64,000 nucleotides of DNA from an uncultured Lachnospiraceae bacterium (GTDB lineage Bacteria; Bacillota; Clostridia; Christensenellales; UBA1242), in assembly GCA_964541815.1 (NCBI GenBank), contig CAZIRI010000003.1, positions 156-64,155 of the forward strand. The letters run 5' to 3'. Positions 174-25,100 of this stretch are shown here, one piece after another (position 1 is the first letter of the stretch; each line of letters opens with the position of its first letter). Position numbers and translations under genes: made by a program. The notes under the pieces were generated by a model that was given only the letters and a program-made list of their open reading frames with translations, was not told the DNA's origin and did not search any database.

Positions 174-249
174 TGGTGGAGATAGACGGATTCGAACCGT
201 CGACCCTCTGCTTGCAAGGCAGATGCTCTACCAACTGAGCCATACCCCC
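174..249 (-). tRNA. tRNA-Ala, anticodon UGC, with encoded CCA
   Basis: The reverse complement reads GGGGGTATGGCTCAGTTGGTAGAGCATCTGCCTTGCAAGCAGAGGGTCGACGGTTCGAATCCGTCTATCTCCACCA. It has a 7-bp acceptor stem with the G3:U70 alanine identity pair. The anticodon stem is TCTGC/GCAGA and the loop is CTTGCAA, giving anticodon TGC. A GGTTCGAATCC T-arm is present. Total length is 76 nt. Confidence 0.95.
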
Positions 250-424: not shown

Positions 425-811
425 TTACATTTTGAGTTCTGAAAGTCCAACATTGTGGAGTTTTCTTTCTTGTTCAACATAGTTGGAAATCAAATCTCTC
501 ACTTTGAATGGGTCTTTGATGTTTTTCAGTTCAAGTGTTGGATGAGTGTCATCATTACTTGTCAAAATGATTGTTCCAGTGTTGAAAATTTTCCCAATCA
601 ATGATTGATTGAGTGCGATATCTGTGATTCTGTAAAGGTTGAGTTCTTCGATATCTGAATAGAAAAATCCGATATCGCAAAACATTTTGAACCATGTTGC
701 ACCTTTTCTCACAAGTCGATATCTCGTGAAAGAAAGTGGCATTCCAAGAAATCTCTTTCTATCCGCCCAAACAAGTTCTGTGCCTTCACCAAATTTTTTT
801 TGTACATTCAT
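425..811 (-). CDS. Bacterial PH-domain protein (bPH_2 / DUF304, YdbT-like short form)
   Basis: 128 aa. The segment ...FTRYRLVRKG...LYRITDIALNQSLIGKIFNTGTIILTSNDD...LELKNIKDPFKVRDLI matches the bPH_2 pattern as I remember it (Y-x-I-T-D...Q-x-x-x-x-R/K-x-x-G-x-G-T-I). It has its own terminator. Confidence 0.75.
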   Translation of the reverse strand: MNVQKKFGEGTELVWADRKRFLGMPLSFTRYRLVRKGATWFKMFCDIGFFYSDIEELNLYRITDIALNQSLIGKIFNTGTIILTSNDDTHPTLELKNIKDPFKVRDLISNYVEQERKLHNVGLSELKM

Positions 812-1309: not shown

Positions 1310-1339
1310 TTGACTTTTGAAATTGTTATATGATAAAAT
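1310..1339 (+). promoter_or_regulatory. Candidate sigma-A promoter of the SPFH/ESCRT-III/Vps4-like operon
   Basis: TTGACT (1310-1315), an 18-nt spacer, then TGaTAAAAT, an extended -10 (1331-1339). Confidence 0.4.
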
Positions 1340-1367: not shown

Positions 1368-2201
1368 ATGGAAAAAAATGTTATCACATTTGTTGGCAAT
1401 AATGAGAAACTTTTCACAAAGATTTTGGTGGAAAATGTTTCATCGCCAAAATTGACTTTGATTGTTCCAGAAACACACAACGCAATCCTTGTCAAAGATG
1501 GGCAAATGCTCCAAACTTTGTCATCTGGGAAATATTTGATGTCATCTCTTATCGATTTGAAAACGGATGCTGACAGCAAAATTGAAATTCTGTTTATGTC
1601 AAAAACAGCAAAACTGAAATTGTTGTGGGGCACAGCACAAATGTTTATGGTCTATGACTCAAATCTTGAAGAAAATTACAAGGTTGGAATGAGCGGGGAT
1701 ATCGATGTTCAAATTGGCGACCCACGAAAGTGCTATCTGTATCTCATCGGGGCGGACAGCGATTTGACAAGTGAAAATTTGCAAATGCGAATTATGTCAA
1801 CTGTGGTGTCCGTTATTGAGGGTGAAGTTGTTGAATATATAAATGCAAACAGTGTCCCATTCAACAAAATTTCTGTTGTTCGAAATGCGATGACGAATTC
1901 GGCATTGACAAAAATAAGTCAAAAACTTATGAATGAATATGGAATAACTGTTTTCACTCTCAACATTGCGAATATTATTATCGATGAGCAAGATTATGCA
2001 AGACTGAACGCTTTGTCAAAAGGGCAAAATGCAAAGAAAGAAAAAACTTGCCCCGCTTGTGGCGCTGTGTTGAATGAAAATGCAAGTTTTTGCAATGAGT
2101 GTGGCAGTGAAGTTTTGGGAGATAAAATTTGTCCTGAATGTTCGACAGTAAATCCGCCAAAATCAAAGTTTTGTTCTGGCTGTGGGCATAAGTTTGCATG
2201 A
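1368..2201 (+). CDS. SPFH/Band-7 family protein with a C-terminal double zinc ribbon (COG4260 / B. subtilis YdjI-like)
   Basis: 277 aa. The N-terminal part, ...LIVPETHNAILVKDGQMLQTLSSGKYLM...LLWGT...IGDPRKCYLYLIG, fits the YdjI-type SPFH pattern. The C-terminus has two CxxC-x(n)-CxxC ribbons: CPACGAVLNENASFCNECG and CPECSTVNPPKSKFCSGCG. Confidence 0.7.
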   Translation: MEKNVITFVGNNEKLFTKILVENVSSPKLTLIVPETHNAILVKDGQMLQTLSSGKYLMSSLIDLKTDADSKIEILFMSKTAKLKLLWGTAQMFMVYDSNLEENYKVGMSGDIDVQIGDPRKCYLYLIGADSDLTSENLQMRIMSTVVSVIEGEVVEYINANSVPFNKISVVRNAMTNSALTKISQKLMNEYGITVFTLNIANIIIDEQDYARLNALSKGQNAKKEKTCPACGAVLNENASFCNECGSEVLGDKICPECSTVNPPKSKFCSGCGHKFA

Positions 2202-2215
2202 AAAGGGAGTGAAAA

Positions 2216-2623
2216 ATGATTGCGGTTTATATATTGATTGGTGTGGCACTTGTTGGGCTTGCGGTGTATTTTGTGATTAAGGAAACAAAATTCTCTTCAC
2301 ATGTTGAAAACATGGGTAGTCATGCTGTTGAAAAAAATAAAAAAGCAATAAATAATATGGTTGCAAATGTCGAGAGTATCATTGTTTATGCAAACGGAAA
2401 TGATGTGCTTTGTAGAAGACTGGTTGAAGTGAAAGACAATATAAGATTTTTCAATCCAACTTCCGATTCAAAGGTTGAACTTATTGACACAAAAATTGCA
2501 AATCGACTTGACGACTTGAAAATTATGGTTGCAAAGGACAACACACAAGAGACTTGTTTTCGTGTGCTGGAAGAAATTGAAGCATTTATCGTGCAGAGAA
2601 AAAAGGATGAGCAGAAATCATGA
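2216..2623 (+). CDS. Small N-terminally membrane-anchored helical protein, function unknown
   Basis: 135 aa. One N-terminal TM helix (IAVYILIGVALVGLAVYFVI) followed by a predicted helical soluble part. SD AGGGAG. Lies 14 nt after the SPFH gene, and its stop overlaps the next start (ATGA). Confidence 0.6.
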   Translation: MIAVYILIGVALVGLAVYFVIKETKFSSHVENMGSHAVEKNKKAINNMVANVESIIVYANGNDVLCRRLVEVKDNIRFFNPTSDSKVELIDTKIANRLDDLKIMVAKDNTQETCFRVLEEIEAFIVQRKKDEQKS

Positions 2624-2982
2624 ACAGAGAATATTATGCTTCACCAAATGTGACTGATGAAGTTGTTCGACAAAAAGTGGTTGATGAATTGAATCTTGGA
2701 TATTTCAATTTGAGTGACGGGCTTTTTGAACAGGCAAAACTAAACTTTTCGCTTGCACTTCAATTTGACAAAAAATGCTCCGAAGCGTATTGGGGCTTGG
2801 CGCTATGCAAATTGCAAATTCGAGATGAAAGCGTGTTGAATGAAAAACCTTCGACATACAAAAATATCACGGGGTTGAGTGAATACAAAAAAGCACTTGA
2901 CTATGCAACTGAAAAACAAAAAAAAGTCTACAAAAGATTGACTGAGCAGATTATGATTATACATTCTGTCGAATACATTTAG
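2620..2982 (+). CDS. TPR-like helical protein; stand-alone paralog of residues ~45-150 of the 1,273-aa protein at 5356
   Basis: 120 aa. GLFEQAKLNFSLALQFDKKCSEAYWGLALCKL...YKKALDYA aligns by eye with LKFDEAIEAFDKIINLYPMSFNAYYGRMQARN...YKLAVQYA in ORF 5356-9177. Confidence 0.6.
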   Translation: MNREYYASPNVTDEVVRQKVVDELNLGYFNLSDGLFEQAKLNFSLALQFDKKCSEAYWGLALCKLQIRDESVLNEKPSTYKNITGLSEYKKALDYATEKQKKVYKRLTEQIMIIHSVEYI

Positions 2983-2992
2983 GTGGTGAAAA

Positions 2993-3601
2993 ATGTGGTT
3001 ATTTGGAAGAAATAAATTCAAAAAATTAAATCGTGAAGATTTGGTGAATTCAATTTGCGAACTTGAAAGACAAGAACGCACTGTTGAGGCGGAAATCTTC
3101 CAGCATGTGAAAGAAATTGACGCCCTTATGGAAAAGGGGAAAAAAGAAGCAAGCAAGGATTTGCAGTTGTTGTATGCAAAGAAAATTGGGCATCTCAATG
3201 AGCAGAAAGACGCTTGTATGCAAAGGGGAATGTATCTTTTATACAACATTCGCCTTATGGAAAAATTGAAAGATGCTTACGACAGCAACACTTTCTTCAA
3301 AACTCAAACAAAAGTGCCGTTGAGTGAACTTTTGAAAGACCAAACAGGACTTGCAAAATTCTTAAATAAGGCACTGCAAACCCGAGTCAAAAGTGAAGAT
3401 GTGCTGACAAATGCGGATGAACTTTTCACGGAAGTAAAATCTGCTTATGACATAAGCAAACCTATTTATGGTGTCAACAAAGAAGAAGATGAAGTTCTGT
3501 CAATCTTTGAGAAAGACGCAAGCATGAAAGAAGAGCAAGAATTTGCACAGGCAAAAGCAAAATCAACAATAAAAAAGAAAAAAATGATGGAGGAAGAGTA
3601 A
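2993..3601 (+). CDS. ESCRT-III (Snf7/CHMP)-like coiled-coil protein, the divergent paralog (CHMP2/Vps2-like N-terminus)
   Basis: 202 aa. It starts MWLFGRNKFKK (from memory, CHMP2A starts MDLLFGRRK). A basic helical hairpin follows with ...ALMEKGKKEASKDLQLLYAKKIGHLNEQ..., then an acidic/charged tail. SD AGGTGG. Lies 1 nt upstream of the second paralog. Confidence 0.5.
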   Translation: MWLFGRNKFKKLNREDLVNSICELERQERTVEAEIFQHVKEIDALMEKGKKEASKDLQLLYAKKIGHLNEQKDACMQRGMYLLYNIRLMEKLKDAYDSNTFFKTQTKVPLSELLKDQTGLAKFLNKALQTRVKSEDVLTNADELFTEVKSAYDISKPIYGVNKEEDEVLSIFEKDASMKEEQEFAQAKAKSTIKKKKMMEEE

Positions 3602-3602
3602 A

Positions 3603-4199
3603 ATGGGACTTTTTAAGAGCAAACAAGAAAAAGAAATCGAAAAGAAGATGTTGATAAAAAGAACAATCAACTCAATGAACAAACAAATTGACAAGTTGGA
3701 AGACCAAAAACATGTGTTTATTGAAGCGGCAAAGACAGCAAAGGAAAAGGGCTTAGACTCTCAATTCAAACTTGCTTTGAGTGGCTACAAAATGACTGTT
3801 CAACAGCAAAAAAGAGCGCAAGAAATGAAGTTGAATTTTGAAATCACCGCTCAAATGAGAGATGTGACAATGATGACTTCCGACTTTTTGCATGGGCTTT
3901 CAGATGTGAGCAAGGAAATGGCAAAACTTGCCAATGCAAAAGAATTCTCAAAAATTCAAGCACAATTTGAGCAAGCAATGGTTGCTGTTGAAACTCAAAC
4001 TGACCAAATGGACAACTTTATGGATATGACACAAGAAACTTTCTACAATGCGGGAAAGAGTAAGTCAAACAAAATGTCCGATGAAGAATTTGAAAAGTTT
4101 ATCAACGAACAAATAAGTCAAGACGATGAATTGTCCGACAGCAAAATTGACCAAGAAATGGCTGATTTGAAGAAAAAAATTGATGCTGAATCAAACTAA
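3603..4199 (+). CDS. ESCRT-III (Snf7/CHMP)-like protein (CHMP3/CHMP1-like) with a C-terminal MIM1-like motif
   Basis: 198 aa. It starts MGLFKSKQEK (from memory, CHMP3 starts MGLFGKTQEK). The hairpin is AAKTAKEKGLDSQFKLALSGYKMTVQQQKRAQEMK. The core SKIQAQFEQAMVAVETQTDQMDNFMDMT resembles CHMP1B EKISALMDKFEHQFETLDVQTQQMEDTM. The acidic tail ends DDELSDSKIDQEMADLKKKIDAESN. Confidence 0.7.
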   Translation: MGLFKSKQEKEIEKKMLIKRTINSMNKQIDKLEDQKHVFIEAAKTAKEKGLDSQFKLALSGYKMTVQQQKRAQEMKLNFEITAQMRDVTMMTSDFLHGLSDVSKEMAKLANAKEFSKIQAQFEQAMVAVETQTDQMDNFMDMTQETFYNAGKSKSNKMSDEEFEKFINEQISQDDELSDSKIDQEMADLKKKIDAESN

Positions 4200-4212
4200 A
4201 AGGTGATAGAAA

Positions 4213-5352
4213 GTGAAAGAAGAAACCAAAATCGCAGTTTTGTCAGAAACTTTTGATTTGTATATGAAAAACGCTCGTGAAGCAAAGGCTCACGGGAAGA
4301 TTGCTCTTGCAAAGAAAAATTTTCTTCTTGCAAGCGAAACGATGATGAGAATGGCAAAACAAAGTGACGGGAAGTTGAAAGAAGTCCGAATGGACAGGGC
4401 AAGAGCATTGCTTGACATTGCAGAGGGATTGGCGAAAGAAGATTTGAAAAGTTCAAAGAAAAATAACGAGACAAAAGAAGAAGATGAGAGCGTCAAGAAA
4501 TGGCAAGCAGCCAAAATTCCTGATATAAAGTTCAGTGATGTTGCAGGTCTTGAAGAAGTCAAAAAAGCAATAACAATTCGAATGATAAATCCAATAAAAT
4601 ATCCCGACAAATACAAAATGTATGGGAAAAAGACTGGGGGCGGTGTTCTTTTGTATGGCCCACCAGGAACGGGAAAAACTATGATTGCGAAAGCGATTGC
4701 AAATGAAGTTGGGGCAAAGTTCTATGCTGTGAAAGGCTCTGACATTGTGAGCAAATGGGTTGGCGACAGCGAAAAGAATATCAACTCACTGTTTGAAGAG
4801 GCGAACAAGCAAGACAGAGCAATCATTTTTATTGATGAAATGGACAACTTGCTTGCAAAGCGTGGAAATGACACTCATAACGACAAGAGAGTGAATGAGT
4901 TTTTGCAACAAATTGACGGGTTCGCTGGAAGAAATCAAAATTTGCTTCTTTTGGGAGCAACAAACAGACCTTGGGATATTGACAGTGCAGCAATGAGGTC
5001 AGGGAGATTTTCTCAAAAAATTTATCTTGATTTGCCCGATGCACCCGCAAGAAAATTTATGATTGAGAAAAATTTGAAAGGTGTGCCACTTGCGGAAGGC
5101 TTTGATGTTGACAGAGTTGTTTCTCAAACAGAGCATTTCAGCGGAGCCGATATAGAAGAATTGTGTGACAGAGCAAAAGATGAGCCACTGCTCAAAGCGA
5201 TTGCGACTGACACGGTTGTCAATGTCACAAATGAGCATTTTGACAAGGTGCTTGAAGTCATGCCACCAAGCGTGACAGAGAGTGAAATGAAACTCTTTGA
5301 AAAATACAACAACGAAGTTGCAAGTTATATCAAAAAGAAAAAAGCGGAGTAA
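4213..5352 (+). CDS. Vps4/CdvC-like AAA+ ATPase (meiotic clade) with an N-terminal MIT-like helical domain
   Basis: 379 aa with a GTG start after AAGGTGA. The N-terminal ~75 aa are helical and MIT-like (KAHGKIALAKKNFLLASETMMRMAKQSDGKLKEVRMDRARALLDIAEGL). Walker A is GPPGTGKT (4657-4680). Pore loop 1 is SKWVGDSEK (Vps4 has SKW[LM]GESEK). Walker B is IIFIDEMD. Also present: GATNRPWDIDSA and a C-terminal PSVTESEMKLFEKY. Confidence 0.8.
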   Translation: MKEETKIAVLSETFDLYMKNAREAKAHGKIALAKKNFLLASETMMRMAKQSDGKLKEVRMDRARALLDIAEGLAKEDLKSSKKNNETKEEDESVKKWQAAKIPDIKFSDVAGLEEVKKAITIRMINPIKYPDKYKMYGKKTGGGVLLYGPPGTGKTMIAKAIANEVGAKFYAVKGSDIVSKWVGDSEKNINSLFEEANKQDRAIIFIDEMDNLLAKRGNDTHNDKRVNEFLQQIDGFAGRNQNLLLLGATNRPWDIDSAAMRSGRFSQKIYLDLPDAPARKFMIEKNLKGVPLAEGFDVDRVVSQTEHFSGADIEELCDRAKDEPLLKAIATDTVVNVTNEHFDKVLEVMPPSVTESEMKLFEKYNNEVASYIKKKKAE

Positions 5353-5355
5353 AAA

Positions 5356-8300
5356 TTGAGAGAGCGTGTTTGTAAAAATTGTGGAGGAAGACGGTATGTT
5401 GTGGTTGGGCAGAACATGGTTAAATGCCAGTTTTGCGGAACTCTCTATGTCGACGAACACGCCTCAAAAGAAGAAGAATATTTGACTGTCGGTGCTTATG
5501 AGAAACTTCGAGAATTGAAATTTGACGAGGCGATTGAAGCATTTGACAAAATTATAAATCTCTATCCAATGTCATTCAATGCCTATTATGGAAGAATGCA
5601 AGCAAGAAACAAAATGGTTTTCTATCCAAACAAAAGCGGAAATGGAAGAAAGGCGAGATTTTTTGGAAAGATTATTCCATCAATTTTGGAAGATGAAGAC
5701 TATAAACTTGCGGTGCAATATGCTCCTGGTGATATCGCAAAAACTTATGAAGAGAATGCGAAAAAAATTGAAAAAGCATACACAGTTTTGTCGCAAGGGA
5801 TTCCCGAAGACAAAACAGATGTTTTTGTTTGTGCATTAAACTACACAAAGGACTCTCCAAACAGCAAAATCGACAGTGCAGTTGCGAAATTGAGAGAAGA
5901 AAATTTGTCAGTCTTTTTCTTGCAAGAATTGCAAGGGAAACTTCTTGAATGCAAGATATTCACGGCACTTAAACATGCAAAAACTTTTGTTTTGTTTGCA
6001 AATTCAAAAGTCAAGGTGACCGACCCTGAATATGTGCATTTGTTTGACAGATACAACTATTTCACACAGCAAAAAGAAAAAAGTCAAACAAGTTTTGTTG
6101 TTGTGATTGACGACAGGGTTTATGCTGATAAGTCAAATTTTCCTGACGACTTTTTGACGAATAAAACAATTGTAGATTTCAATTCAGTGACATTTGAGGG
6201 TGATTTTGTTTCGGTTGTAAAGACGGAAATTGCAAACACTCTTGAATTGTCAAAAAAATTGCAAACTGTTGATGTTGAGACAATTAAGGCGGAAAAGAAG
6301 CAAATTGTTGATGTTGAAACAGTCAACACGGTGAAACTTGGAAACTACAAAATTGACAATGTTGCACCAAATTATGAGAACAAAATAAAATGGATTTCAT
6401 TGGCGTTGCAAAATGGAGATTTTGTTTCCGCACAAGAAGCGATTGATGAAGAATTGGAAAAAAATCCAAACAATGCCGAAGTTTTGTTTGCTCAATTTAT
6501 GTGTGACAGTCGCAGTAGAACGGCTGGGGAATTTTTTTCAAGTATTGACCATTTTGCTGACAAGGAGAGATTGCAAAATATTTTGCAACTTGCATCTAAA
6601 AATTTTGCGGAAATGATTGTTGACAACTTGGAAAGATTGATTCAAAACATTGATGATGTGGGATGCTACAATGAATATGCGCTCTTTGTTGCACAGTATG
6701 AATCACCAAATCGAGCGGAGTTTGTTTCAAAACTTGCGGACAAGGCTGTTGAAACTTTGGATGCAGGATTGATTGAAAAGACGGAAAAATGTTTCCATAA
6801 AGATGAAATTGACAAGTTTTTGGATTTTTACAATCGATTGGCGGACAAAACGGGTGATGATTCTTATCACCAAAAGGTTTTGGCTCTTGACGTAGGAAAT
6901 ATTGAAAGCAATTTGGCGATGATTTTGGCAAAAATGAAGACTGTTGATGAAAAATTGACTTATCGAAATGCCGAAGAAATTGAAAGCGTTCTTCAATATT
7001 TAAGCGAAGAAGAAAGGTCTCAAATTATTATTCCAGTTTTGGGAGAAATTTTGTCTGTCGCCTTTTTTGACATTCGAAAAACTGAGGAGCAACTTGACTT
7101 TTATTTGTCCTACATTTCAGAAACAAGTCAGTTGGTGTCCGTGTTGTCAACGGTTGGACAAAAGTTGAATGAAATGGGTTTTTACACGCAGGCGGAAAGA
7201 TACTTGGCAAATGCGATTGAAAAAGACAAGCAAAATGCAAAACTTTATTGGCTTCTCATTCAAAACAAAATTCATTGTTCGAATGAAAATGAGATGATAT
7301 CTTCTGGTGTGAAAATTTCAAAAATGCCAGAGTGGGAAAGTGTTCTTGCCTATGCGGATGACAAAGAGTCTGAAAAATATGCGCTTGTTGTGAGCAAAGC
7401 AAACAGCAACACAAATTTTCCAAAACCTCAAAGATTTGAAACTTTGGACAAAATTATGTTGAAAGAAAAATTGGGTTTGTTTTTGGAGAGAAATTCAAAA
7501 ATTTTGCTTGAAGCACAAAAAGTTCACGGAAATATAAAGGGGGTGAATTACTACAAATCGCAAATCAGACCTTTTGAAGTTTTTTTTGAACAAATTGCAA
7601 AAGCAAATGATTTTGACGCATATATCAAAATTGTCAACAAGATATATGAAAGACTTCGATTGATGCATTTGACACTTGAAGCGTCAATCAGTGCATTGCA
7701 AATTGATGAAAAGTCAAACGGCTTAAAGGCTGTGAGAATGGCATCAAGAAGTTATTCTTTGACGGAAGAAGAACAAAAGAAAGCGGAAGAATTGCAAAAA
7801 AGCAAGATTGCAACACGAAAGTTTTTGTATGGATTTTTGGAAATTGCACCTGTCGCACTCACACTTCTACTGCTCATTTTGTCACTTGCCTCACCAAAAC
7901 TTGTGTTTGACTATTTCAATCAAACATTTTTGCTTGTTTTGAGTGTATATAGTGGAGTTGTTGCTGTTGGAAATTTGCTTTTTTATATATTTAAGAAGAA
8001 AAACTTGAATCCAAAGTGGAAAATCGCCGAAAAGTTTTTGATTACTCTTACATTTGTGAATTTGATTTTGTTCGTTTGTTCATTTTTCATTTTTCCATCA
8101 AAAATCACTGTGTCAAATGAAAAAGATTTGAAGAGATATGTTTCAAATGCGCAATATTCAAACATTGTTCTTGACAGTGATATCGAACTCTCAAACGAAT
8201 GGACGGCTCGCAAATTTTATGGAATTTTTGACGGAAATGGACACACAATTTCAAATATCAATATCAAATCTGGTGAAGATATAGCATTTTTTGAAGAAAA

Positions 8301-9177
8301 TAGCGGGACAATCAAATCTTTGACGCTTGTTTATGTGGAAAAGTCGTATAAAAATGTGGACAACTTTGCTGGGGTCGCTGTCACAAATTATGGAATTATC
8401 ACGAATTGTAAAATTTCTTGTGGTGGAACAATTTCAATTTCAACAAACGAAAATGCAATCATTGGCGGAATTTGTTCAGTCATGAAAAAAGGCTCAATCA
8501 CTTCTTGTGAGGTGAACGATTTTAATCTCAACATTTCATCAAATGGGAATGCTGTTGTTGGCGGACTTGTCGGAAAAACTGACATTGAAGACGATTTGAC
8601 GGTGGTAAAAAACAACTATGACTCGACTATGACCCTCGTGCTTGACGATGCAAAGGCTGTTTATGCTGGTGGAATTGTTGGGCAGAGTGACAGAAGCAAA
8701 CTTGACAACTTTAATTTGTCAAGAAATCATGCGGGAGTTTGGATTTCTTTGAAAGGCACAGCAAGCAAAATTTGTGTTGGCGGGCTTGTTGGCGAGGGTG
8801 GCTGTGAAAGTGAAAACAACTACACCACTGGAACGATTAAGTCGGAGGTTGTCGTTGACTCTGCAACAAAAATGTATGTTGGCGGGCTTTATGGCACTGC
8901 CAACACAACATCTCTTGATTTGTATGCAATAAAGACAAGTTATTCATCTGTCACAGTTGATTTGAAATCGTCTGACAGCATTGTTTATGGGGCATTGATG
9001 GGCAGTCTTAAAGATATGCAAGTGACAAACTGTTTCTCAACTGCAGACAGTGAAATTTACAACAACAACGGCAGTGGAGAAACTCTTGGGAATGCAAACA
9101 AATTCAATGCTTTTGATGGGGCGATATTCAGCAAATTTGATGAAAAAATTTGGAATAGCAACAAAACTTTGAAGTGA
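5356..9177 (+). CDS. Multidomain membrane protein: cytosolic zinc ribbon, TPR-like repeats (possibly a TIR-like segment), 3 TM helices, extracellular GLUG-repeat beta-helix domain
   Basis: 1,273 aa with a TTG start 3 nt after the ATPase stop. Zinc ribbon: CKNCGG...CQFCG. There are three copies of a TPR-like motif ending AYYGRM, VLFAQFMC or LYWLLIQNK. TM helices lie at ~7815-8100. The C-terminal part reads FYGIFDGNGHTISNINI followed by repeated (V/A/I)GG(L/I)(V/C/Y)G motifs, typical of GLUG domains. Confidence 0.7.
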   Translation: MRERVCKNCGGRRYVVVGQNMVKCQFCGTLYVDEHASKEEEYLTVGAYEKLRELKFDEAIEAFDKIINLYPMSFNAYYGRMQARNKMVFYPNKSGNGRKARFFGKIIPSILEDEDYKLAVQYAPGDIAKTYEENAKKIEKAYTVLSQGIPEDKTDVFVCALNYTKDSPNSKIDSAVAKLREENLSVFFLQELQGKLLECKIFTALKHAKTFVLFANSKVKVTDPEYVHLFDRYNYFTQQKEKSQTSFVVVIDDRVYADKSNFPDDFLTNKTIVDFNSVTFEGDFVSVVKTEIANTLELSKKLQTVDVETIKAEKKQIVDVETVNTVKLGNYKIDNVAPNYENKIKWISLALQNGDFVSAQEAIDEELEKNPNNAEVLFAQFMCDSRSRTAGEFFSSIDHFADKERLQNILQLASKNFAEMIVDNLERLIQNIDDVGCYNEYALFVAQYESPNRAEFVSKLADKAVETLDAGLIEKTEKCFHKDEIDKFLDFYNRLADKTGDDSYHQKVLALDVGNIESNLAMILAKMKTVDEKLTYRNAEEIESVLQYLSEEERSQIIIPVLGEILSVAFFDIRKTEEQLDFYLSYISETSQLVSVLSTVGQKLNEMGFYTQAERYLANAIEKDKQNAKLYWLLIQNKIHCSNENEMISSGVKISKMPEWESVLAYADDKESEKYALVVSKANSNTNFPKPQRFETLDKIMLKEKLGLFLERNSKILLEAQKVHGNIKGVNYYKSQIRPFEVFFEQIAKANDFDAYIKIVNKIYERLRLMHLTLEASISALQIDEKSNGLKAVRMASRSYSLTEEEQKKAEELQKSKIATRKFLYGFLEIAPVALTLLLLILSLASPKLVFDYFNQTFLLVLSVYSGVVAVGNLLFYIFKKKNLNPKWKIAEKFLITLTFVNLILFVCSFFIFPSKITVSNEKDLKRYVSNAQYSNIVLDSDIELSNEWTARKFYGIFDGNGHTISNINIKSGEDIAFFEENSGTIKSLTLVYVEKSYKNVDNFAGVAVTNYGIITNCKISCGGTISISTNENAIIGGICSVMKKGSITSCEVNDFNLNISSNGNAVVGGLVGKTDIEDDLTVVKNNYDSTMTLVLDDAKAVYAGGIVGQSDRSKLDNFNLSRNHAGVWISLKGTASKICVGGLVGEGGCESENNYTTGTIKSEVVVDSATKMYVGGLYGTANTTSLDLYAIKTSYSSVTVDLKSSDSIVYGALMGSLKDMQVTNCFSTADSEIYNNNGSGETLGNANKFNAFDGAIFSKFDEKIWNSNKTLK

Positions 9178-9329: not shown

Positions 9330-9380
9330 TTGACAATATGTGAAATGATGTGATATTATGATATATGTTGACAAGTCAAC
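9330..9380 (+). promoter_or_regulatory. Promoter of the ABC exporter operon with an adjacent perfect palindrome (candidate operator)
   Basis: TTGACA (9330-9335), then TGaTATTAT, an extended -10 (9351-9359). The palindrome GTTGAC-AA-GTCAAC lies at 9367-9380, around the expected transcription start. Confidence 0.5.
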
Positions 9381-16089: not shown

Positions 16090-16138
16090 ATCTTTGATAT
16101 TTATGAAATTATTTTTCATGATAAATAGGAGATTTTGT

Positions 16139-19100
16139 ATGAAAAAAAGAAATTTTGCCTTTATGTCAATTCTCGCCTTTTTGTTTGGCGGTTTTTTGAC
16201 GGCTTGTGATTTCAAAGACGCAAAAGCAAATTTTCAACAAGAGGAGATTGTTGTGTCAGTTGGCGACAGTGTCAATTTGTATGACTATCTCACTTTTGAA
16301 AATGTGGAAAAGGGCGATATTTCTTTCAAGTGCGAAAATTCGGATATTGTGGCAAGCAGTGCTGGTGAGTTGGTTGCTCTGAGTTCTGGCTCATCGCAAG
16401 TCTATGCGACTTACAAAAACAACCTCTTGTCATCAATCAATGTTTTTGTTCGAGGCTTTTTTGATGCGCCAGCAACAGTGAATTATGTTGATGGTCAATT
16501 GATTTGGTCGCCAGTTTATGCCGAGGATAAAAATGGGGACACTGAATATGCTGGTGGATACATAATTTCTGGGACAAGAACTGCCCCTGACGGAGAAGTT
16601 TCTGAAATAAATGAATTTATTTCGTCAAGCAAGAACAGTATCAATTTCACGGATGCAGGGCATTATGTGATTTCGATTCAAACTCTTGGTGGGATTGGTT
16701 ATTTTGACACAACGAAAGAAGAAAATGCAAAAATCTACACTTTTGATTGTGGTTATATGAAAAAGTTGAAAGCAAGCGACATTGTTTGGGAAAGTGACGG
16801 AAAGTTGTCATGGACGGCTGTTGCAGATGCAAAATACAAGGTCAAAGTGAATGGTGTTGAACTTGGCAACTTGCAAACTGAAACTTCTTACAATTTGTCA
16901 GAGACAATTACAAACGGAACTGCGGATGAATACAACATTTCCGTTGTTGTGTATGATGCAAATGGAAATTTGAATGGCAATCGCTATGAATGTGAAAGTG
17001 AACAAATTGTTGTGAGTAAGTTGAGTTCGCCAACGATTTTATGCGAAAATGGAAAACTTAAAGTTGTTTCACAGCAAGAAGTTGATGAATTTGATTTCAC
17101 ATTCACATCATTGAGCGGGACTGGTGGAATTATTCAAATTAATGAAAAATGCACTGGCAGGGAATACATTGATGCATTTGACACTCTGTCCGCTGGGGAA
17201 TATTTTTTGACTGTGCAAGTCAAAAAGAATGGGCTTTATTTCAGTGGTGACAGTGTGGCTACATTGCAAAAAATTGTCAAACTTTCAAAGGTGACAATTG
17301 AAGGCACGGGAGCAAATGTTGAAAACGGGACTGCTGTAAATGTTTCATTCTCGGCGGGAGATAATGCGTCGTCAAAAATGCAAGTTTCAATCAATGGAAA
17401 CGCAAGCGAAATGGCGACAACTGCCAATTCAATTGATTTTGGTGGCACTGGGACTTATGTTGTGAAAGCGATGCAAATTCCTGACGACACAAACAATGCT
17501 TATGCATTAAATTCCGTTGAAAGTGATGAAGTGACTTTTACCGTGCTTTCTTGGGGTGAAGATAAGCAAATCACACATGCATATGTCGAGGTTGGTGAGG
17601 ACCAAAAAGTTGATGTGTCAAAATTGTCATTTGACAGTGTTGATGGGGCAAGCAAATACACTTTGTTTGTGAAGTCTGCGAGTGTCTGGGAAAAAGTTGG
17701 GGATTGCGAACAAAACGCTTACACATTCAATGGCAAAATTGAAAATTTGTATGATAAAAAGGTTATAGAAAATAAACTCACTTTCAAGGTTGTTGCAAGC
17801 GGAGATGACAAGTCGACCGTTTCAGTGTCAAAAGAGAAAGTCGTTGATGTTTTGCCAAAGGCGGAAGAAGTTGTTAGAAGTGACAACACCTCAAAAACTT
17901 ATCAATGGAGTGAGGTTGCGAATGCGGGCGGATATTTGTTGACAATTTATCGCACAATGAACAGTGATTTGTATGGTGAAACTAGTCCTAATTACGAAAA
18001 TGTTGGTTGGACAGAAAGCGTAAAAACTGTGACCACAAACTCGGTGACTTTGGAAGACTTTGGATATTATCACATTGAAATTCAATCAATTTCAAATGAT
18101 GAAAATTTATATATTTCTTCGCTTGATGTTTTTAAGGGCAAGTTCTACATTTGCGAAAAATTGAGCATATCAAGTGATGATTTTAAGTTTGGATATAACA
18201 GCGAATATAACAAAGAAACTCTTGCAACGGGCGGAATTTGTCATGGATATTTCATTCAAATCAAAAACAGCACGGCAGAAAATATTGTTAAGTATGCGGT
18301 GTCATTGAGTGACGGAGAAAAAACTGAAAGTGGCGAAATAGTAAAAAGCAGTGGAGATTACACTATATACAAATTTGCCAGTGATTTTTCTGGGAGCGGA
18401 AAGACATACACAATTTCAATTGTTGAAAAAAGTGACAATGTCTATGTGAAGACTTCTGACACGGAAGTTGTGAGCAATAAAACTTACTACACGAAGACGA
18501 CGGACAACAACAAAGATGTGTATACTATTGTGACAAGTCCAACAGTTGAGAACATTGGAAATTATTATGAAAAATACACAAAATGTGATGCAACAATTTA
18601 TCTTGATAGCGATGCGGTCACAAAAACAGTTGAGAGATTGAAAAATGTTGAAATAAGCGATATCGTGGTTGGTCAATTGAATTTGTCAGTTTCTTCAAGT
18701 TTGGCAAAGGAAAGCATTTCTCAAAGTCTTTCGCTCAAATCCATTGAAAACGCTTCAACATCGATAAATTGTGGGGAAGATTTTGTGACAAATGGCAGTT
18801 ATGACATTGCAAATATTTCTTCGGGCAATAATGTCACATTCCAATACATAGGTTCTAGGATAAAATCTAATATTTACGAAGTTCAAGACAGCACGATTTA
18901 TTTGAGTGGAGAAAGTCTTGCGGTCGCATTCAAACGAATTGTGACTCCAACAAGTTTGAAATACGAAAAAGGGGAATTGCACTTTACGCTCACTAGTAGC
19001 ACGGGTGTAAATGCGACATATTACAGGGTTTTGATTTCCTTTGTTGATGAAAACCAAAGGGTGTCACGCATTGATGTTTGTGTCCCTCCTGAAAGTGGGG

Positions 19101-22100
19101 AAGTGACAGCGGAATGCGCTGGAACAAAGTATAGCCTAGGGCAGTTGAATTGCTACAACTTTGGCGATAATATTGTCAAAATTAACATCACAACAATTTT
19201 GGAAAAAATTCAAGAAAATGAAGTGTTGGGCAGTTTATACACTCAAGCAAAGGAAGTCGGATTCTCTGCAAGTTGTTTCATAAGTGAGGGGGGTGAAACA
19301 AACAATGGAATCGTTTACAACATTTCTTCACAATTTGCAACCGCCGAAGATAATTCGATTGTGCTAAAAGTTGAAAAATTGGTTGCGCCAAAACTTTCAT
19401 ACACATATGCAAACGGGACTTTGACTTTCAATTGGAATGAAGTTTCTGCAAAGGGTGACACAACATACAGACTTTACACAAATGGGGATGTTTCAGGCTC
19501 ATGCACCGTGACAAAACTTGTAAAGCAGTTTGGAAGCGACATCAGCGATTTGAAGCCAGCAACACAATATATTTTCTATGTGACGGCGATAAATGATTTG
19601 TATCTTGAATCAAGTCGTTCAAACACTTTGACGATATACAAATTGTCGCAAATTGATGCTATTTCTTTGAGTGACGGAAAGATTGTTTATCAACTTAAAG
19701 AAAAGGATTATGCAAGCGGTGTTCAATGCACAACTGATGCAGGAACCCCAACTGTCACAACTGAATCATGCACAATTGTTGGCAAAGGAACTTACAAACT
19801 TTCAGTGAAAGGGCAAGAGAAGAATGTTGAGTATGAGTATGTCAAAACTTCTGACACAAGTGTTGATGAAACAAAAACTTACTACACATTGACAAATGGT
19901 GAATATATCGCTGTGACAAGTCCAGCAGTTGAGAACATTGAAAATTATTATGAAAAATATATAGAAAGTGATGCGACAATTTATCTTGACAGTGATGTGA
20001 CGATTTGGACTGTTGAAGAGATGTCAGAACTTGCACCAACTGACAACAAAGTATCCTTTGCATCAAATTCGATTTCTTGGCAAGAGTTTGCAAGTGGGAA
20101 AACTTTGAATGTTGAATATATTCTTTATTTCAAAGATATAAATGAGAAAATTGTCTCATACAACAACGGGAAAGGTGCAAGTGTCGATTTGACAACATCA
20201 ATTGTAAGAGAAAATTTTGAGAGTTTAGCTTCTGGGGATGTGGAAATTTTTGTGGTTGCAAAACTCAACAACTATTCTGTTTCCAACGGGTCAACAGTGC
20301 AAACAATTTATTTTGCAAATGGTGTGAAATTGCCAAATGGTGAAACGGCAAACAATGTTTATTTATACACAAGCACAACCGTTCGTAAATTGGAAGCACC
20401 TACTGTGACTTCGGTTCAATTTGACGGTGAAGATGCCACGCCAAACATTGTTGTCACATTCACAGGAAATTTCACGGGCGACACAGGCTTTGATATCTAT
20501 TTTGGCGGAGTGCAGATAGATGATGAGACAAAAGATGAAGACGGTGCAACACTTTTTGAAGAGATTGAGATAGAATCAGTTTCAGGCACTGAAAATTCAT
20601 TCTCATTCACCGTGCCATATGCAAGATACAACAGCCTGATTGCAGGTGGAGAAACAAAAATTTTGAAAATTTCTGCGGACAGTGCATCGCAATTCCCATC
20701 ATCAAGTGGGAGTGTTGCAATTTCAAGAGCGGAAAGTGTGAAAAATGTCAAATTTGTCGAAAGCAATGGAAAATTGACAAAAAATGTCGAAATTGAATTA
20801 ACTTCTTCACAATTCACTGCGGGTGGGATTGCTTTGGAAATCACTGCGACACCAGTTTCAGGGAATGCAACAACAGAAGTTGTCAACATTGATTGTTCAC
20901 AAATTGTGGATAACTCTTTGAAATTAAATTATGACTTGTCAACAATTTTGAACAAGGAAGTTTATAAAGATTGTCAAAGTATCCAGTTGAATGCAAGATT
21001 GAAATGTTTTGCAGATGATGCAAACAAGACTTATATTTTGAGTTCGACATATTCATTGATGGATGTTGTCACATACAAAATCATTCCTTGTGTGGATAAT
21101 AGCACTGACTTGAAAAAGACTTCCAGTGGATTTACGATTGACAAGACATATAATGACGCTGACATCTCGTCAAAAGAAATTCAATACATTTTGACAGTCA
21201 CAAAATATAATGACGGCAAAACGGAAACAGAAAGACACAATGAATTCACGATAACTAAAAATGACAATGAAAAATATGAATTTGTCTTCCCTCGTGGTGC
21301 GGAATGGGAAAGTGGAACATACACTTTTGAAATTCAAACAGTATATGTGAATGATGCTTCAGAAAGTGCATCAACAAACAATCTCTTGGATTCGGCAAAA
21401 AGCACTTTCACATGGGAGTTGACAAGGCTTGATATTATTGACGCAAATTCAATCAGTTGCACAAGAGATGCAGACAATCTTTCGCTTGTGACAATGTCAT
21501 GGAATGTTGTTAATGGTGCAAAAGAATATGTTGTTGAGGTTGTGGATGAAAAGGGAGAAACTTTGTGCAGTCACACAATAACAGGGACAACGACTAGGGC
21601 AAGTTGTTCAATGCAAGATATGATTCAAAATGTGGAATATATATCAAGCGACATTCAAGCGACTGTTTCCATTTATGCAAAAAGTGATTTGAGTGAAGGA
21701 ATTGCAGTAAGTTTCCCAATAACAATCAGAGCAAACACACTGATAAGTGAACCAGCAAGTGTTGATGAAAATGGTGTTTTGTGTTTGTCTGTGCAAAAAG
21801 GGATGACATATTTATATAGAATTGTCAATTCGGACGGAGATGATGTCAAAAAGTGGACAAAAGTGACCGCCGAAAGCGACACAGTGAAAATTGACACAAA
21901 TGCACTTACAAAAGGTGTAAATTGGCATGTTGAAATTGCTGTCTATGGAAATGTTGACGGAAATGCTGTCAATCCAACAACAGCGAATCCAGCGATTGTT
22001 GCAGACTCAAAGATTCTTGTGGCAACAAATACATTCATCCCAACTGAAAAAATTTGTTCAATAGCAAGAAACGAACAGGAAGGGAATAAAAATATCATGG

Positions 22101-25100
22101 CAGTGGAAGCACCACAAGAATTCACAAACATTCTTGTTGGATTGAGTGAAGATGCGGTCATGACTGGCGAAGTTGCATCAATAAAAGTGAATTCCATTGG
22201 CTCATCAAAAACCGATGGCTATGCAATTTATGGACTTGCTTTGGGAGATGTGATTTCCGCATTCAAAACGGCGAATATTGATGTTCCAACTTCAAATGAC
22301 CCACAAACAATGTGGCTTTGGATTTACAAAGAATCGACTGAAAATGCAAGATATATTGTTTCGCCAAGTTTTGAGTCACAATTTATATATATGGAAAAGA
22401 CAAGCATAACATATCAAGGCACAGTGAAACTTGGAGATGAGAACACTGAAAAATTTGCGGACACCTATGTCAAGTTTGCTGGCGATAGCACTGCTCTTGG
22501 AATTTATGTGAGAATAACAACCTATGAGAAAGAGAACAATCCAATCACTGTTTTGAAATTCTGTGATAGTAAGAGCATGCTTGAAACAAGCAAAGATGTT
22601 TTTGGTGATGCCAATAATTTTGCAATCAATTTGACAGCGTTGTTTGAAAAAAAAGCTGGCGAGGGTGAAGTTTCTTTGAGAGATGTTGAAGGGGATCTTA
22701 CGATTGAATATGCAAAATTGACCTATTCGACAAGCAACAAGTTGTTTGGGCTTAATGAATGGCTTGGAACGGACGAAAATGGAAAAGAATTTGGATTTTA
22801 TAGACTTTCAAAACCAGGGAATGTCAAACTCTCGGGCGGAGATATTTCTTGGACTGACGGCAATCCAAAATCTTCAAGATATTATGTGTATTTTGCAACC
22901 CAATTGAATGAAGATCAAGACGATTTGGAAAGTGCTAGTCAATATTCATATGTATACACACAAAAAACGAGTTATTCAGCATCTGAATATGCTGGGATTG
23001 AACAAAAATATCATATTGCTGTTCAATCGATAAACAGTGACCCATTTGTGTTGTCATCTTCAAGAGTGTTTATTTCAAAGGATGACGCCATCACTGAAAT
23101 TTACAGAAATCAAGTGAGTGGCGGGTTGGAACTTGTTGGCGGAGCATTGAGATTCAAACTTGCAAACACTGAATTTGCGACAAATTTAGTAGCGTTGGCG
23201 GGTAAGGCTGAGAATGCTTCCGATTCAGATATTGAGGATTTTATGAATGAGACTTATCAAGCCCCTTTCACATTCAAGATTTCTGATTTGTTTGGCGACA
23301 ACATAAGTGTTCGATTGAAATTCACATCTCTTGATGTTGAAACGAACGGGAAATATCAAACATTTGATGTCAAAGCAAAATACTTGCTTCAAAATTTATT
23401 TGATGTGAATTCTGGTTTGGAAGGGAAGTTAAAAACCCTTGCAGACAAAACAAGCAAACTCAATTCGATAAGAGACTTCTTCTCAAGATCAACGGGCGGA
23501 ATTGCAACTCAACAACTTATTTGTGACGAAATTTTCAACTCATTGTCAATTGGGAATTATTCAATTCAATATCAAATTTTGGGTGGCACAAACACATTAA
23601 ATTCATATTGGTATGATTTCTGCAATATAGAAAATGGCAATAGAAACATCATTTATATAAACTCTCAACCTGACTATACAATAAGATGCGAAACTGATGC
23701 GAATGGCAACAATAAATACAGTGTGACATTCAAGAAAACTGATGTTGTGAGTGGTTATGAAAATGTTTACACACTCGTTGAAAATCCAGTCAGCGAAAAG
23801 ATAAAGGCATATTTTGAAAAAACATATGTTCAAACTTCTGACACGGGGATTGTGGACGGAAAAACTTACTACACAAAGACAACGGACAACGACAAAGATG
23901 TGTATACCGTTGTGGAAAGTCCAACAGTTGGCAATATTTCTACTTATTATGAAGAGGAATACACACTCACGACCGACACGGAGATTTCAAGCGAGAAAGA
24001 ATATTATGAATTGACTTCATGCACTCCAATAATGTCACCTGCAACAAGTTATGTGATGAAGTTGTATACATCAAGCGACAGTTATTACACATTTGATTTC
24101 AACGGAATTGATGTTTCTGGAAATGCGACTATGAAAATTGGCGCACAGACAATATATTCGAAAGATGTTGTGAACGAAGGAACTGTCACGGTTTATGATG
24201 CTGACAAAGACGGAAACACAACAGATAAGAGCGGAAATGCAATTGTCGGTGGTGGATATTACAAATTCTATTTGAATTGTGTTGATGATTCGCTTTTGGG
24301 AGTGTTTGGAGATTTGATAGAGAAGTATTCATACAAAATGCAAATTTATGCAGTTGGAACCGATTTCTCATTGTCTTCAAAATCACAATGCTTCAATGTC
24401 ACGTTCCTAGATTTCACAGGACTCTCACTTGAAAATGGTGTTTTGAGTTGGACTAGTGTTGGAACGACAAAAGTTTGGTGCAATTCTAGTTCCACAGATA
24501 AAGGAGGAACATCATCTTATATTGGAACGCTCACTGCAAAAGACGCAATAAATGGAAGACAAAATTTGCCAGTGAGCAAAATGGGTGCTGGCAAATATGA
24601 CAGCATTCAATTCCAAGAAATTGGTGGTGTTTATTCAGAATCTGTGGATGTTGATAGTGTTATTTATCAACTTGACAATGTCTACAAATATTCAGCACCA
24701 ACAGTCTCAACTGAATTGGGCTTGATAAAAATTGACAGCACTGCAAACGATATAGACAATATCTTCTCTCAATCTGGTGTTGATATGAGAATTATCACGA
24801 CTATACGAGAGAAAACAACCTCAAGTGAAGGTTCAGGCGAGGAAAAGGAAGGAGGTTCGGCGGAATTAATTGGAAATCTTGGAAAGATGAGGTCAAATGA
24901 TTCGATTATGTATAACGATGTTTCAACATCTTCTAGCAGACTTATCACACAATCAAAAACTTATGAAGTGGGTGGTTCTTCTGAATATGAAAGGACTGAA
25001 ATGACCGCAACTGAATTTAATGTCGCTACAGTTGGGTCAACGGTTGAGAAATTCGCAAGTGATACGAGTGGGAATTTGTTGATGAAATTGACTCCTATGA

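Follow-up and report, generated by a model that had tools for sequence, protein, structure and literature searches.

A Firmicute operon predicted to encode an ESCRT-III/Vps4-type membrane-remodelling module

[quoted passage not shown] Recent reviews confine the pairing of ESCRT-III with Vps4 to archaea and eukaryotes, a 2025 review states that a Vps4-like ATPase appears to be absent in bacteria (PMC7619361), and the disassembly of the bacterial ESCRT-III relatives is an acknowledged open question. The matter is raised here by a 64,000-nucleotide stretch of DNA from an uncultured Lachnospiraceae bacterium, placed in the Christensenellales by GTDB (contig CAZIRI010000003.1; this whole stretch is referred to below as the window), in which two adjacent coiled-coil proteins of ~200 aa had originally been predicted from the letters alone to be an ESCRT-III pair lying next to a Vps4-like ATPase. 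Taken together, our profile searches, structural models and comparisons of gene neighbourhoods suggest that the operon at 1368-9177, to which these genes belong, encodes a bacterial ESCRT-III/Vps4-type membrane-remodelling module, a reading to which we assign a probability of about 0.7. It is based on the homology of one of the two small proteins to Snf7/CHMP proteins, the predicted MIT fold and the AAA domain of the ATPase, a MIM1-like tail on the small protein, the structure of the operon and a conserved core of genes.

The three genes lie on the plus strand at 2993-3601 (202 aa, ATG start), 3603-4199 (198 aa, ATG start) and 4213-5352 (379 aa, GTG start), and are named open reading frame (ORF) 4, ORF5 and the ATPase, respectively. 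ORF4 and ORF5 are separated by 1 nt, and ORF5 and the ATPase by 13 nt (4200-4212). These frames and the 13-nt spacing are as first described, as are the bacterial Shine-Dalgarno sites, which were found as AGGTGG upstream of 2993, GGAGG upstream of 3603 and AGGTGA upstream of 4213. The translations likewise bear out the N-termini that had been quoted (MWLFGRNKFKK and MGLFKSKQEKE), the KG(K/L) turn (EKGKK and EKGLD at residues 47-52), the acidic C-terminal tails of both small proteins and the ATPase motifs SKWVGDSEK, GATNRPWDIDSA and PPSVTESEMKLFEKY. The features of the three genes are as follows.

2993..3601 (+): ORF4, 202-aa helical protein, candidate divergent ESCRT-III-like paralogue
3603..4199 (+): ORF5, 198-aa Snf7/CHMP-type ESCRT-III homologue (by family profile, model and Foldseek)
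3603..3632 (+): ORF5 N-terminal motif MGLFKSKQEK, putative membrane-binding helix alpha0 (aligned with CHMP3)
4137..4181 (+): ORF5 MIM1-like C-terminal amphipathic helix, DSKIDQEMADLKKKI, residues 179-193 (pattern and predicted helix)
4213..5352 (+): 379-aa MIT-AAA ATPase (Pfam AAA 2.8e-42, AAA_lid_3)
4231..4443 (+): predicted MIT-fold three-helix bundle of the ATPase, residues 7-77 (AlphaFold2 and Foldseek)
4645..5031 (+): AAA domain of the ATPase, residues 145-273, Walker A GPPGTGKT and pore loop 1 SKWVGDSEK (Pfam AAA; motifs from the translation)

ORF5 and the MIT-AAA ATPase

The wider family of ORF5 was reached when 1.84 billion representative proteins were searched exhaustively with a profile, word-indexed searches having returned only relatives of at least 71% identity. 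This search gave 353 clusters at E<=1e-3, most of them proteins of ~190-230 aa that aligned end to end, and from 97 diverse members, 22-49% identical to ORF5, a family profile was built. Individually, 17/97 of these relatives match Pfam Snf7 (PF03357; best 1.4e-9), and 0/97 match PspA_IM30 (PF04012). When the profile was compared with 177,635 PDB sequences we found CHMP2A at E 2e-6, with profile positions 7-150 aligned to its residues 4-143 (144 positions), residue 4 being the first of the solved chain, followed by CHMP1B (0.019), CHMP3 (0.073) and, lower down, CdvB and Vps24, with no PspA or Vipp1 among the sequence matches at E<=10. At this E-value for CHMP2A the resemblance that had first been noticed by eye is beyond chance. 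The comparison with CHMP1B was also borne out, the segment NLEKISALMDKFEHQFETLDVQTQQMEDT of 8v2q_A aligning to ORF5 KIQAQFEQAM...QMDNFMD, and CHMP3 does begin MGLFGKTQEK, as had been stated (PDB ID 3frv_A). This CHMP3 stretch aligns from profile position 1, and the corresponding MGLFKSKQEK N-terminus is conserved across the ORF5 family.

The AlphaFold2 (AF2) model of ORF5 agrees with this assignment, with predicted helices at residues 7-48, 52-109, 112-153, 160-172 and 179-197 that correspond to the ESCRT-III layout of five to six helices, in which a long alpha1-alpha2/3 hairpin precedes alpha4, alpha5 and a C-terminal helix. In a Foldseek comparison with 350,542 PDB chains, ranks 1-11 were all taken by ESCRT-III-superfamily proteins, including CHMP2A-CHMP3, CdvB, CHMP1B, Asgard ESCRT-IIIB and Vipp1, the last of these at rank 4 behind CHMP2A and CdvB. 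Judged by its profile, then, ORF5 is a Snf7/CHMP-type ESCRT-III homologue and not a PspA-type one, a membership that is transitive through the family.

Proteins of this kind can be recognized by MIT domains through a MIT-interacting motif, of which the MIM1 consensus is D/E-x-x-L-x-x-R-L-x-x-L-K/R. We found that the tail of the ORF5 family ends in an amphipathic helix of MIM1 type (DSKIDQEMADLKKKI in ORF5, and for example DEDIERRLQEIR and DDEIDRRLSQLE in relatives), and that a relaxed MIM1 pattern is present in the last 40 residues of 31/97 family members, as against 0-1/97 in three control windows of equal length. The C-terminal helix that AF2 predicts for ORF5 (residues 179-197) covers the MIM1-like stretch. 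The ORF5 tail thus carries a MIM1-like helix, which is predicted to be MIT-interacting.

The candidate partner for such a tail is encoded 13 nt further on. The ATPase has a single Pfam AAA domain (residues 145-273, 2.8e-42), followed by AAA_lid_3 at residues 297-331 of 379, and the NCBIfam hidden Markov model (HMM) of CdvC (NF041006) aligns to it over its full length, pairing residues 9-367 with positions 6-366 of the 370 in the model. Its N-terminus was modelled with 7 homologue fragments, and the AF2 model is confident nonetheless (predicted local distance difference test (pLDDT) 92), giving a three-helix bundle with helices at residues 7-26, 30-49 and 53-77. In the PDB, Foldseek ranks 1-2 for this bundle are the MIT domain of Sulfolobus CdvC (2w2u), and MIT domains make up ~22 of its top 50 matches (TM-score 0.64-0.77, root-mean-square deviation (rmsd) 1.6-4.0 A), among them those of S. 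solfataricus Vps4, VPS4A/B, yeast Vps4, spartin, MITD1, katanin, calpain-7, ULK3 and chitin synthase. By sequence, the N-terminus finds its best PDB match in an oomycete chitin synthase MIT domain (E 0.22), and Pfam MIT is matched by 1/13 ATPase orthologues (E 0.026). A MIT fold at residues 7-77 is confidently predicted by the model. At the opposite end of the protein, a stretch of 32 residues at the C-terminus corresponds to the last Vps4_C helix (18.1 bits, E 0.0027, vs a cut-off of 21.3 bits), and a sub-threshold Vps4_C-like terminal helix is present as well in the ATPase of one distant related cluster (L086, described below). Pore loop 1, SKWVGDSEK, is to be compared with SKWLGESEK in VPS4B and SKWMGESEK in yeast Vps4. 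Two outcomes had been named that would count against the original prediction, namely small proteins belonging to PspA/IM30 or to no ESCRT-III family, and an ATPase that falls within FtsH/Cdc48/SpoVK-type clades and for whose residues 1-80 no MIT fold is predicted; since the profile of ORF5 is Snf7/CHMP and residues 7-77 of the ATPase are predicted to form a MIT domain, neither was found for these two genes.

The operon and its relatives

The operon consists of seven co-directional genes (1368-9177) whose intergenic spacing ranges from a 4-nt overlap to 14 nt. A promoter-like site at 1310-1339 is likely the start of the operon, judging from a consensus scan in which the next strong promoter-like site (9330-9359) precedes the downstream ABC-transporter gene. 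Beyond the three genes listed above, its features are the following.

1310..1339 (+): promoter-like site, TTGACT, 18-nt spacer and TAAAAT, with TG; precedes the first gene (consensus scan)
1368..2201 (+): 277-aa SPFH/Band-7 protein, soluble, with a C-terminal double zinc ribbon (Pfam matches)
2216..2623 (+): 135-aa protein with a single N-terminal transmembrane helix (residues 2-20) and a helical cytoplasmic part (hydropathy scan)
2620..2982 (+): 120-aa TPR-like helical protein (weak TPR-type NCBIfam matches)
5356..9177 (+): 1273-aa protein with an N-terminal zinc ribbon, TPR-like helical repeats, three transmembrane helices and a C-terminal repeat domain (Pfam, hydropathy)

The SPFH protein matches Pfam Band_7_1 at 1.2e-12 (48.4 bits vs a 24-bit cut-off), DZR at 2.8e-10 and Zn_Ribbon_1 at 1.8e-10, and no transmembrane segment was found in it by the hydropathy scan. 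In architecture it matches B. subtilis YdjI, with which it has in common the Band_7_1 domain, the freedom from transmembrane segments, the C-terminal zinc ribbon and an operon shared with an ESCRT-III-superfamily gene. The architecture of YdjI and its role in the pspA-ydjGHI operon have been described (PMC8581546; PMC11237479): membrane recruitment of PspA in B. subtilis requires YdjI, and YdjI in turn requires the transmembrane proteins YdjG and YdjH (PMC8581546). The 135-aa transmembrane protein of the window, a possible membrane anchor judging from its predicted helix, has no family match in Pfam or NCBIfam and is restricted to the loci of closer relatives. We also considered it as a hidden Snf7-like hairpin and rejected this, its profile signal to the Snf7-like family being not above that of shuffles.

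The 1273-aa protein has transmembrane helices at residues 827-845, 858-876 and 894-912 by the hydropathy scan and matches to Pfam TPR_14, TPR_16 and TPR_19, all of them weak; its C-terminal repeat domain is probably extracellular, and its gene comes after the ATPase gene in close relatives too. A TIR-like domain at its N-terminus is not claimed, the similarity to the TIR-FHA protein of L086 being not significant (E 0.65). In BLASTP the 120-aa TPR-like protein aligns with the 1273-aa protein at residues 608-675 (E 3e-6), and by this similarity looks like a free-standing copy of one of its helical repeat modules. Elsewhere in the window there are two giant plus-strand ORFs, at 16094-28096 (4000 aa) and 38068-56178 (6036 aa), which match essentially no Pfam family, the sole match being a weak Flg_new repeat. 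Residues 932-1146 of the 1273-aa protein are 32% identical to window positions 38380-39051, inside the 6036-aa ORF, and a surface domain may therefore be common to the transmembrane protein of the operon and a giant protein of the cell surface. On the opposite strand, 5' of the operon, lie a tRNA-Ala(TGC) gene at 174-249 (-) and a gene for a bacterial PH-domain (bPH_2) protein at 425-811 (-).

Related loci were sought by scanning a single genome of each GTDB species for motifs, the query being a 7-sequence subset biased to Christensenellales, and relatives were found in at least 142 species genomes. The best 80 of the 142 are all Christensenellales-type metagenome-assembled genomes (Ca. Caccovivens, Coproplasma, Christensenella and Catabacter), and in these best 80 the gene order SPFH, ORF4, ORF5, AAA is kept, with ORF4 always directly 5' of ORF5. 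Among Caccovivens-like genomes the chromosomal position of the operon is constant, and its ABC-transporter and pyruvate formate-lyase flanks are shared. The distance between the ORF5 and ATPase genes varies: in five loci of close relatives (L011, L014, L015, L030 and L037) the ATPase gene lies ~500-950 bp past the ORF5 homologue instead of ~20 bp, which implies an insertion between the two, and in a Coproplasma-like group 1.6-4 kb of other genes separate the homologues. In one further locus (L055, CANQAE010000002.1) the ORF5 homologue is 64% and the ORF4 homologue 55% identical to the window proteins.

Distant relatives of ORF5 (~25-30% identity) were traced to their contigs, and all were found in similar clusters, adjoining a AAA ATPase whose N-terminal domain matches that in the window. 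These distant clusters often add a Band_7_1 gene (as in L086, L092 and L093) and 2-3 Snf7-like paralogues. Six of them are given here.

L084: multi-transmembrane protein, Snf7-like protein, then a AAA ATPase that shares its N-terminal domain with the window ATPase
L086: Band_7_1, coiled coil, Snf7-like, MIT-AAA, Zn-ribbon-TIR-FHA protein, PP2C, Ser/Thr kinase
L088: Snf7-like protein, then a AAA ATPase
L090: a spore-former; two tandem Snf7-like paralogues and a AAA ATPase beside spoIVA
L092: Snf7-like-FtsK fusion, two more Snf7-like genes, Band_7_1, MIT-AAA, large protein
L093: Band_7_1, Snf7-like, two MIT-AAA, Snf7-like-RuvB fusion, four TerD

The MIT-AAA protein of L086 has the pore loop SKWYGESEK and weak Pfam matches to MIT and Vps4_C. 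Considered together with the Christensenellales loci, these clusters therefore identify a core of SPFH protein, one or more Snf7-like proteins and MIT-AAA ATPase as a recurrent Firmicute module.

Some of these clusters have further features of their own. In L086 (6175-15141) the ATPase is followed by genes for a Zn-ribbon-TIR_2-FHA protein, a PP2C phosphatase, a 700-aa Ser/Thr kinase and a multi-transmembrane protein. In L090 (5908-11991) the Snf7-like pair and the ATPase have der/plsY on one side and spoIVA on the other, and this 355-aa ATPase differs in its pore loop, DSYIGKTGK. A P-type cation ATPase gene and four tandem TerD genes stand directly 3' of the Snf7-like/MIT-AAA cluster of L093 (7935-13482), and the TerD genes hint at a stress-response context. 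In a number of relatives the Snf7-like domain is N-terminal to FtsK/SpoIIIE-type or RuvB-like AAA ATPases, some of which end in a NERD nuclease domain (fusion proteins P0296, P0299, P0300, P0303, P0306, P0309, P0315, P0316, P0373 and P0387), and two such fusion genes, L092 6001-7863 and L093 6001-7812, sit within Band_7_1/Snf7-like/MIT-AAA clusters. To our knowledge, such a joining of ESCRT-III-like domains to DNA translocases or helicases has not been described.

Points against the reading and rival explanations

A number of findings weigh against an ESCRT-III/Vps4-type module, and they concern each of the three proteins. Searched as a single sequence, ORF5 found nothing in Pfam (E<=1), NCBIfam or the PDB, and since it is the family profile and the relatives that have matches, its Snf7 membership holds at the level of the family. 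The AF2 confidence of its model is modest (pLDDT 64.6), the E-values of its top 11 Foldseek matches are only 0.06-0.75, and E 0.001 was reached by no Foldseek match of either the ORF5 model or the N-terminal model of the ATPase, the latter being as expected for a 70-residue bundle. For the ATPase, there is no significant MIT match by sequence in Pfam, NCBIfam or the PDB, the CdvC equivalog score is 203.4 bits where the cut-off is 650 bits, and its best HMM score is that of the NCBIfam CDC48 model (221 bits, residues 99-369 only). Its best PDB match is p97-D2, and it is no nearer to Vps4 than to p97-D2 (in phmmer against the window ATPase, p97-D2 scores 201 bits, yeast Vps4 180, VPS4B 168 and p97-D1 166). 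The Vps4 beta-domain is absent, because the ~48 residues that remain after the AAA lid leave no room for it; in keeping with this, the alignment to yeast Vps4 ends at residue 341 and that to p97-D2, which has no beta-domain, extends to 364. The arginine-finger stretch, MRSGRFSQKIY, is of the Cdc48-type RxGRF, vs RRRFEKRIY in Vps4. Moreover, some related loci have TIR, FHA, kinase, NERD or TerD genes, which could mean conflict or stress signalling, and it is from architecture that we infer polymerisation, MIT-MIM binding, disassembly and a biological role.

How far, then, is the ATPase a Vps4? Of four more distant bacterial ATPases tested, three score Vps4 above p97-D2 and that of L086 does the reverse (p97-D2 194 vs 175 bits). 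In a neighbour-joining tree the bacterial MIT-AAA proteins form a group of their own (137/200 bootstraps), apart from Vps4 and p97; the references of this tree were four verified sequences, without archaeal Vps4, katanin, spastin, FtsH or PAN, relative to which it cannot place the ATPase. With a predicted MIT domain, one AAA domain, a terminal helix and a KW pore loop, yet with these scores and this tree, we therefore describe the ATPase as Vps4-like in architecture, and by sequence comparison it would constitute its own clade about equally far from Vps4 and Cdc48-D2. The 'Vps4-like' of the original prediction thus stands as a statement of architecture, and is not supported as one of clade membership.

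The second small protein presents the greater difficulty. To the eye ORF4 has much the same layout: its N-terminus is aromatic-basic, with the family motif MW(L/P)FK..K(F/Y)K.L.RE, a conserved helix (IYGV..(D/E)(D/E)ELL.(M/I)FE) and an acidic tail follow, and the KGK turn at residues 48-50 is in the same position as the KGL of ORF5. As a single sequence it matched neither Snf7 nor PspA in any of Pfam, NCBIfam and the PDB. For the ORF4 family, drawn from 80 loci (41-79% identity), Pfam gave no Snf7/PspA match even at E<=10, 0/20 relatives match PF04012, and a 20-sequence profile found no ESCRT-III match in the PDB. This family profile gave no meaningful match among 150 representatives, ORF4 was not enriched when the ORF5 family profile was run with HMMER over 8296 locus ORFs, and ORF4 and ORF5 show no similarity by BLASTP, or by hhalign with close-relative alignments only. 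When the two full families were compared with hhalign we found 163 colinear columns (1-179 to 4-176) with a score of 25.5 (E 0.0035, probability 9%). Reversed alignments gave 13.5-13.7 and 200 column shuffles a mean of 13.1 (sd 2.3, max 21.0), and 0/200 shuffles reached 25.5 or aligned at least 120 columns. Through this weak link it is plausible that ORF4 is a divergent ESCRT-III-like paralogue of ORF5. Of the ESCRT-III 'pair' first proposed, ORF5 is upheld by its profile, and ORF4 is tied to it only by this hhalign match. A weak match of ORF4 to the PP7 coat protein was rejected as spurious because the chain is a tandem dimer in which a single match of E~0.3 occurs twice.

Could these genes instead form an envelope-stress operon of the PspA/YdjI type, in which PspA/IM30-like effectors are accompanied by a generic Cdc48/FtsH-type AAA chaperone, with no ESCRT-like coupling? 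The first gene does have the architecture of YdjI, the partner of PspA in Firmicutes, the ATPase does have CDC48 as its top HMM and p97-D2 as its top PDB match, and TerD stress genes do adjoin one related cluster (L093); moreover PspA and Snf7 are one superfamily, so their functions may overlap. We nevertheless consider this unlikely, since no PspA_IM30 or Vipp1 sequence match was found for ORF5 at any level while the Snf7/CHMP matches are significant, since the predicted MIT fold of the ATPase and the MIM1-like tail of ORF5 are devices specific to ESCRT-III/Vps4 coupling, and since Snf7-like and MIT-AAA genes remain neighbours across distant lineages.

A second possibility is an anti-phage or conflict system, with the ESCRT-III-like protein and the AAA ATPase as membrane effector or sensor and not as agents of housekeeping remodelling. 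It is suggested by the fusions of ORF5 relatives to RuvB-like ATPases with a NERD nuclease domain and to FtsK/SpoIIIE ATPases, by the TIR-FHA, PP2C and Ser/Thr kinase genes of L086, and by a score of 139 bits for the ATPase on the PADLOC IetA models. However, PADLOC matches no other protein of the operon, which leaves the IetA score as generic AAA similarity, and FHA, kinase and phosphatase partners accompany ESCRT clades in archaea as well (Makarova et al. 2024, PMC10936438). The fixed chromosomal position with constant flanks in Caccovivens-like genomes, and the occurrence in at least 142 species genomes, form the pattern of a vertically inherited core function and not of a mobile defence island, and we hold a conflict system to be quite improbable here. 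Finally, that a coiled-coil composition artefact has brought together three functionally unrelated neighbours might be supposed from the empty single-sequence searches of ORF4 and ORF5, the designed helical repeat proteins that are also among the PDB matches of the ORF5 profile and the weak Foldseek E-values, but this is largely refuted already by the end-to-end CHMP2A match at E 2e-6, the 17 independent relatives that match Pfam Snf7 (down to 1.4e-9), the ESCRT-III entries in the top 11 of 350,542 PDB chains, the MIT domains that dominate the top matches of the ATPase N-terminus and a gene adjacency that is kept at 25-30% identity.

Known systems, proposed mechanism and significance

An ESCRT-III/Vps4-type module thus remains the preferred reading, and it can be set beside four known systems. 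With the archaeal ESCRT/Cdv systems it shares the MIT domain, whose best structural match is that of Sulfolobus CdvC (2w2u), and the full-length alignment to the CdvC HMM. The Meth_adaptin ESCRT loci of archaea include a SPFH-coiled-coil-zinc-ribbon protein, and other archaeal ESCRT clades have FHA, kinase and phosphatase partners (Makarova et al. 2024, PMC10936438); the SPFH-zinc-ribbon gene of the window mirrors the former, and the FHA, PP2C and Ser/Thr kinase genes of L086 the latter. It differs from them in that the hosts are bacterial (Christensenellales and other Firmicutes), that the CdvC equivalog cut-off is missed, that neither a beta-domain nor a component of the winged-helix (ESCRT-II-like), CdvA or adaptin-like kind was found in the operon, and that a large TPR-transmembrane protein and a small transmembrane protein are added. 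To the eukaryotic CHMP/VPS4 system it is linked by CHMP2A, CHMP1B and CHMP3 as the top sequence matches for the ORF5 family, by a MIM1-like helix at the extreme C-terminus, and by a predicted MIT fold that superposes on the MIT domains of VPS4A/B with an rmsd of 1.8-2.4 A. Here, however, sequence identity is very low, ORF5 alone being undetectable, RSGRF replaces the RRRFEKR of the Vps4 arginine-finger stretch, the ~45-residue beta-domain that binds Vta1/LIP5 is lacking from the ATPase, and the operon has no ESCRT-0, -I or -II.

Like the pspA-ydjGHI operon of B. subtilis, that of the window is a Firmicute operon which combines an ESCRT-III-superfamily protein with a soluble SPFH-zinc-ribbon protein and small membrane proteins, the likeness to YdjI being one of architecture; unlike it, the candidate polymer-former is Snf7-type and not PspA-type, and a MIT-AAA ATPase is present where the ydj operon has no ATPase. 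The original prediction had further held that bacterial members of the superfamily have no Vps4 partner. This agrees with the recent reviews, but is to be modified by Ravi et al. 2024, who report VPS4-like ATPases transferred to five other bacterial phyla, with snf7 'displaced' by a TPR-6TM protein, and some divergent bacterial Snf7 proteins near double-AAA ATPases. In those operons a VPS4-like AAA is followed by a large TPR and multi-transmembrane protein, in the same order as in the window; compared by description only, they are without snf7 and in other phyla, whereas in the window the Snf7-like genes stand directly 5'. In the literature searched we found no description of a Firmicute operon of Snf7-like, MIT-AAA and SPFH genes. 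The window operon brings together Snf7-like genes, a MIT-AAA ATPase and a TPR-transmembrane protein in Firmicutes, along with a YdjI-type SPFH partner.

From these likenesses a mechanism may be proposed. Using its MGLFKSK motif and basic alpha1-alpha2 hairpin, ORF5 would attach to the cytoplasmic membrane from the inside and polymerise there, with ORF4 as a possible second, divergent subunit or adaptor. The YdjI-like SPFH-zinc-ribbon protein and the small transmembrane protein may recruit or nucleate the polymer, as YdjI does for PspA. The MIT domain of the ATPase would then dock on the MIM1-like helix at the end of the acidic ORF5 tail, and the ATPase would hexamerise and pull subunits through its KW pore loop, which would result in an ATP-dependent turnover of the polymer for constriction, scission or resealing. 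The 1273-aa TPR-transmembrane protein might tie this machine to an envelope site or signal.

Accordingly, the module most likely serves repair or scission, by an ATP-driven turnover of ESCRT-III polymer bound to the membrane. Within this, membrane repair or a response to envelope stress appears most likely by analogy, because of the resemblance to YdjI and the TerD neighbours of L093, with vesicle formation or division-related scission as possible roles and defence as a minority possibility. Going a step further, we would give even odds to the proposal that Firmicutes own a vertically maintained ESCRT machine, in which composite Snf7/CHMP polymers of 2-3 paralogues per locus, a dedicated MIM-recognising MIT-AAA disassemblase and a SPFH nucleator carry out ATP-driven scission or repair.

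The operon of the window belongs to a wider Firmicute family which pairs a Snf7/CHMP-type protein bearing a MIM-like tail with a MIT-AAA ATPase. Relatives occur in Christensenella, a culturable genus of the human gut, and the small proteins should suit reconstitution. If the pair works as its architecture predicts, bacteria have an ATP-driven ESCRT-III cycle, the link between SPFH proteins and ESCRT-III seen in B. subtilis and in archaea would be a shared ancient theme, and a third, bacterial lineage would be available in which to examine the origin of Vps4 from a Cdc48-like ancestor. Should the proposal of a Firmicute ESCRT machine hold true, the coupling of ESCRT-III to Vps4 would not be limited to archaea and eukaryotes, and would either predate the split between archaea and bacteria or have crossed between the domains early.

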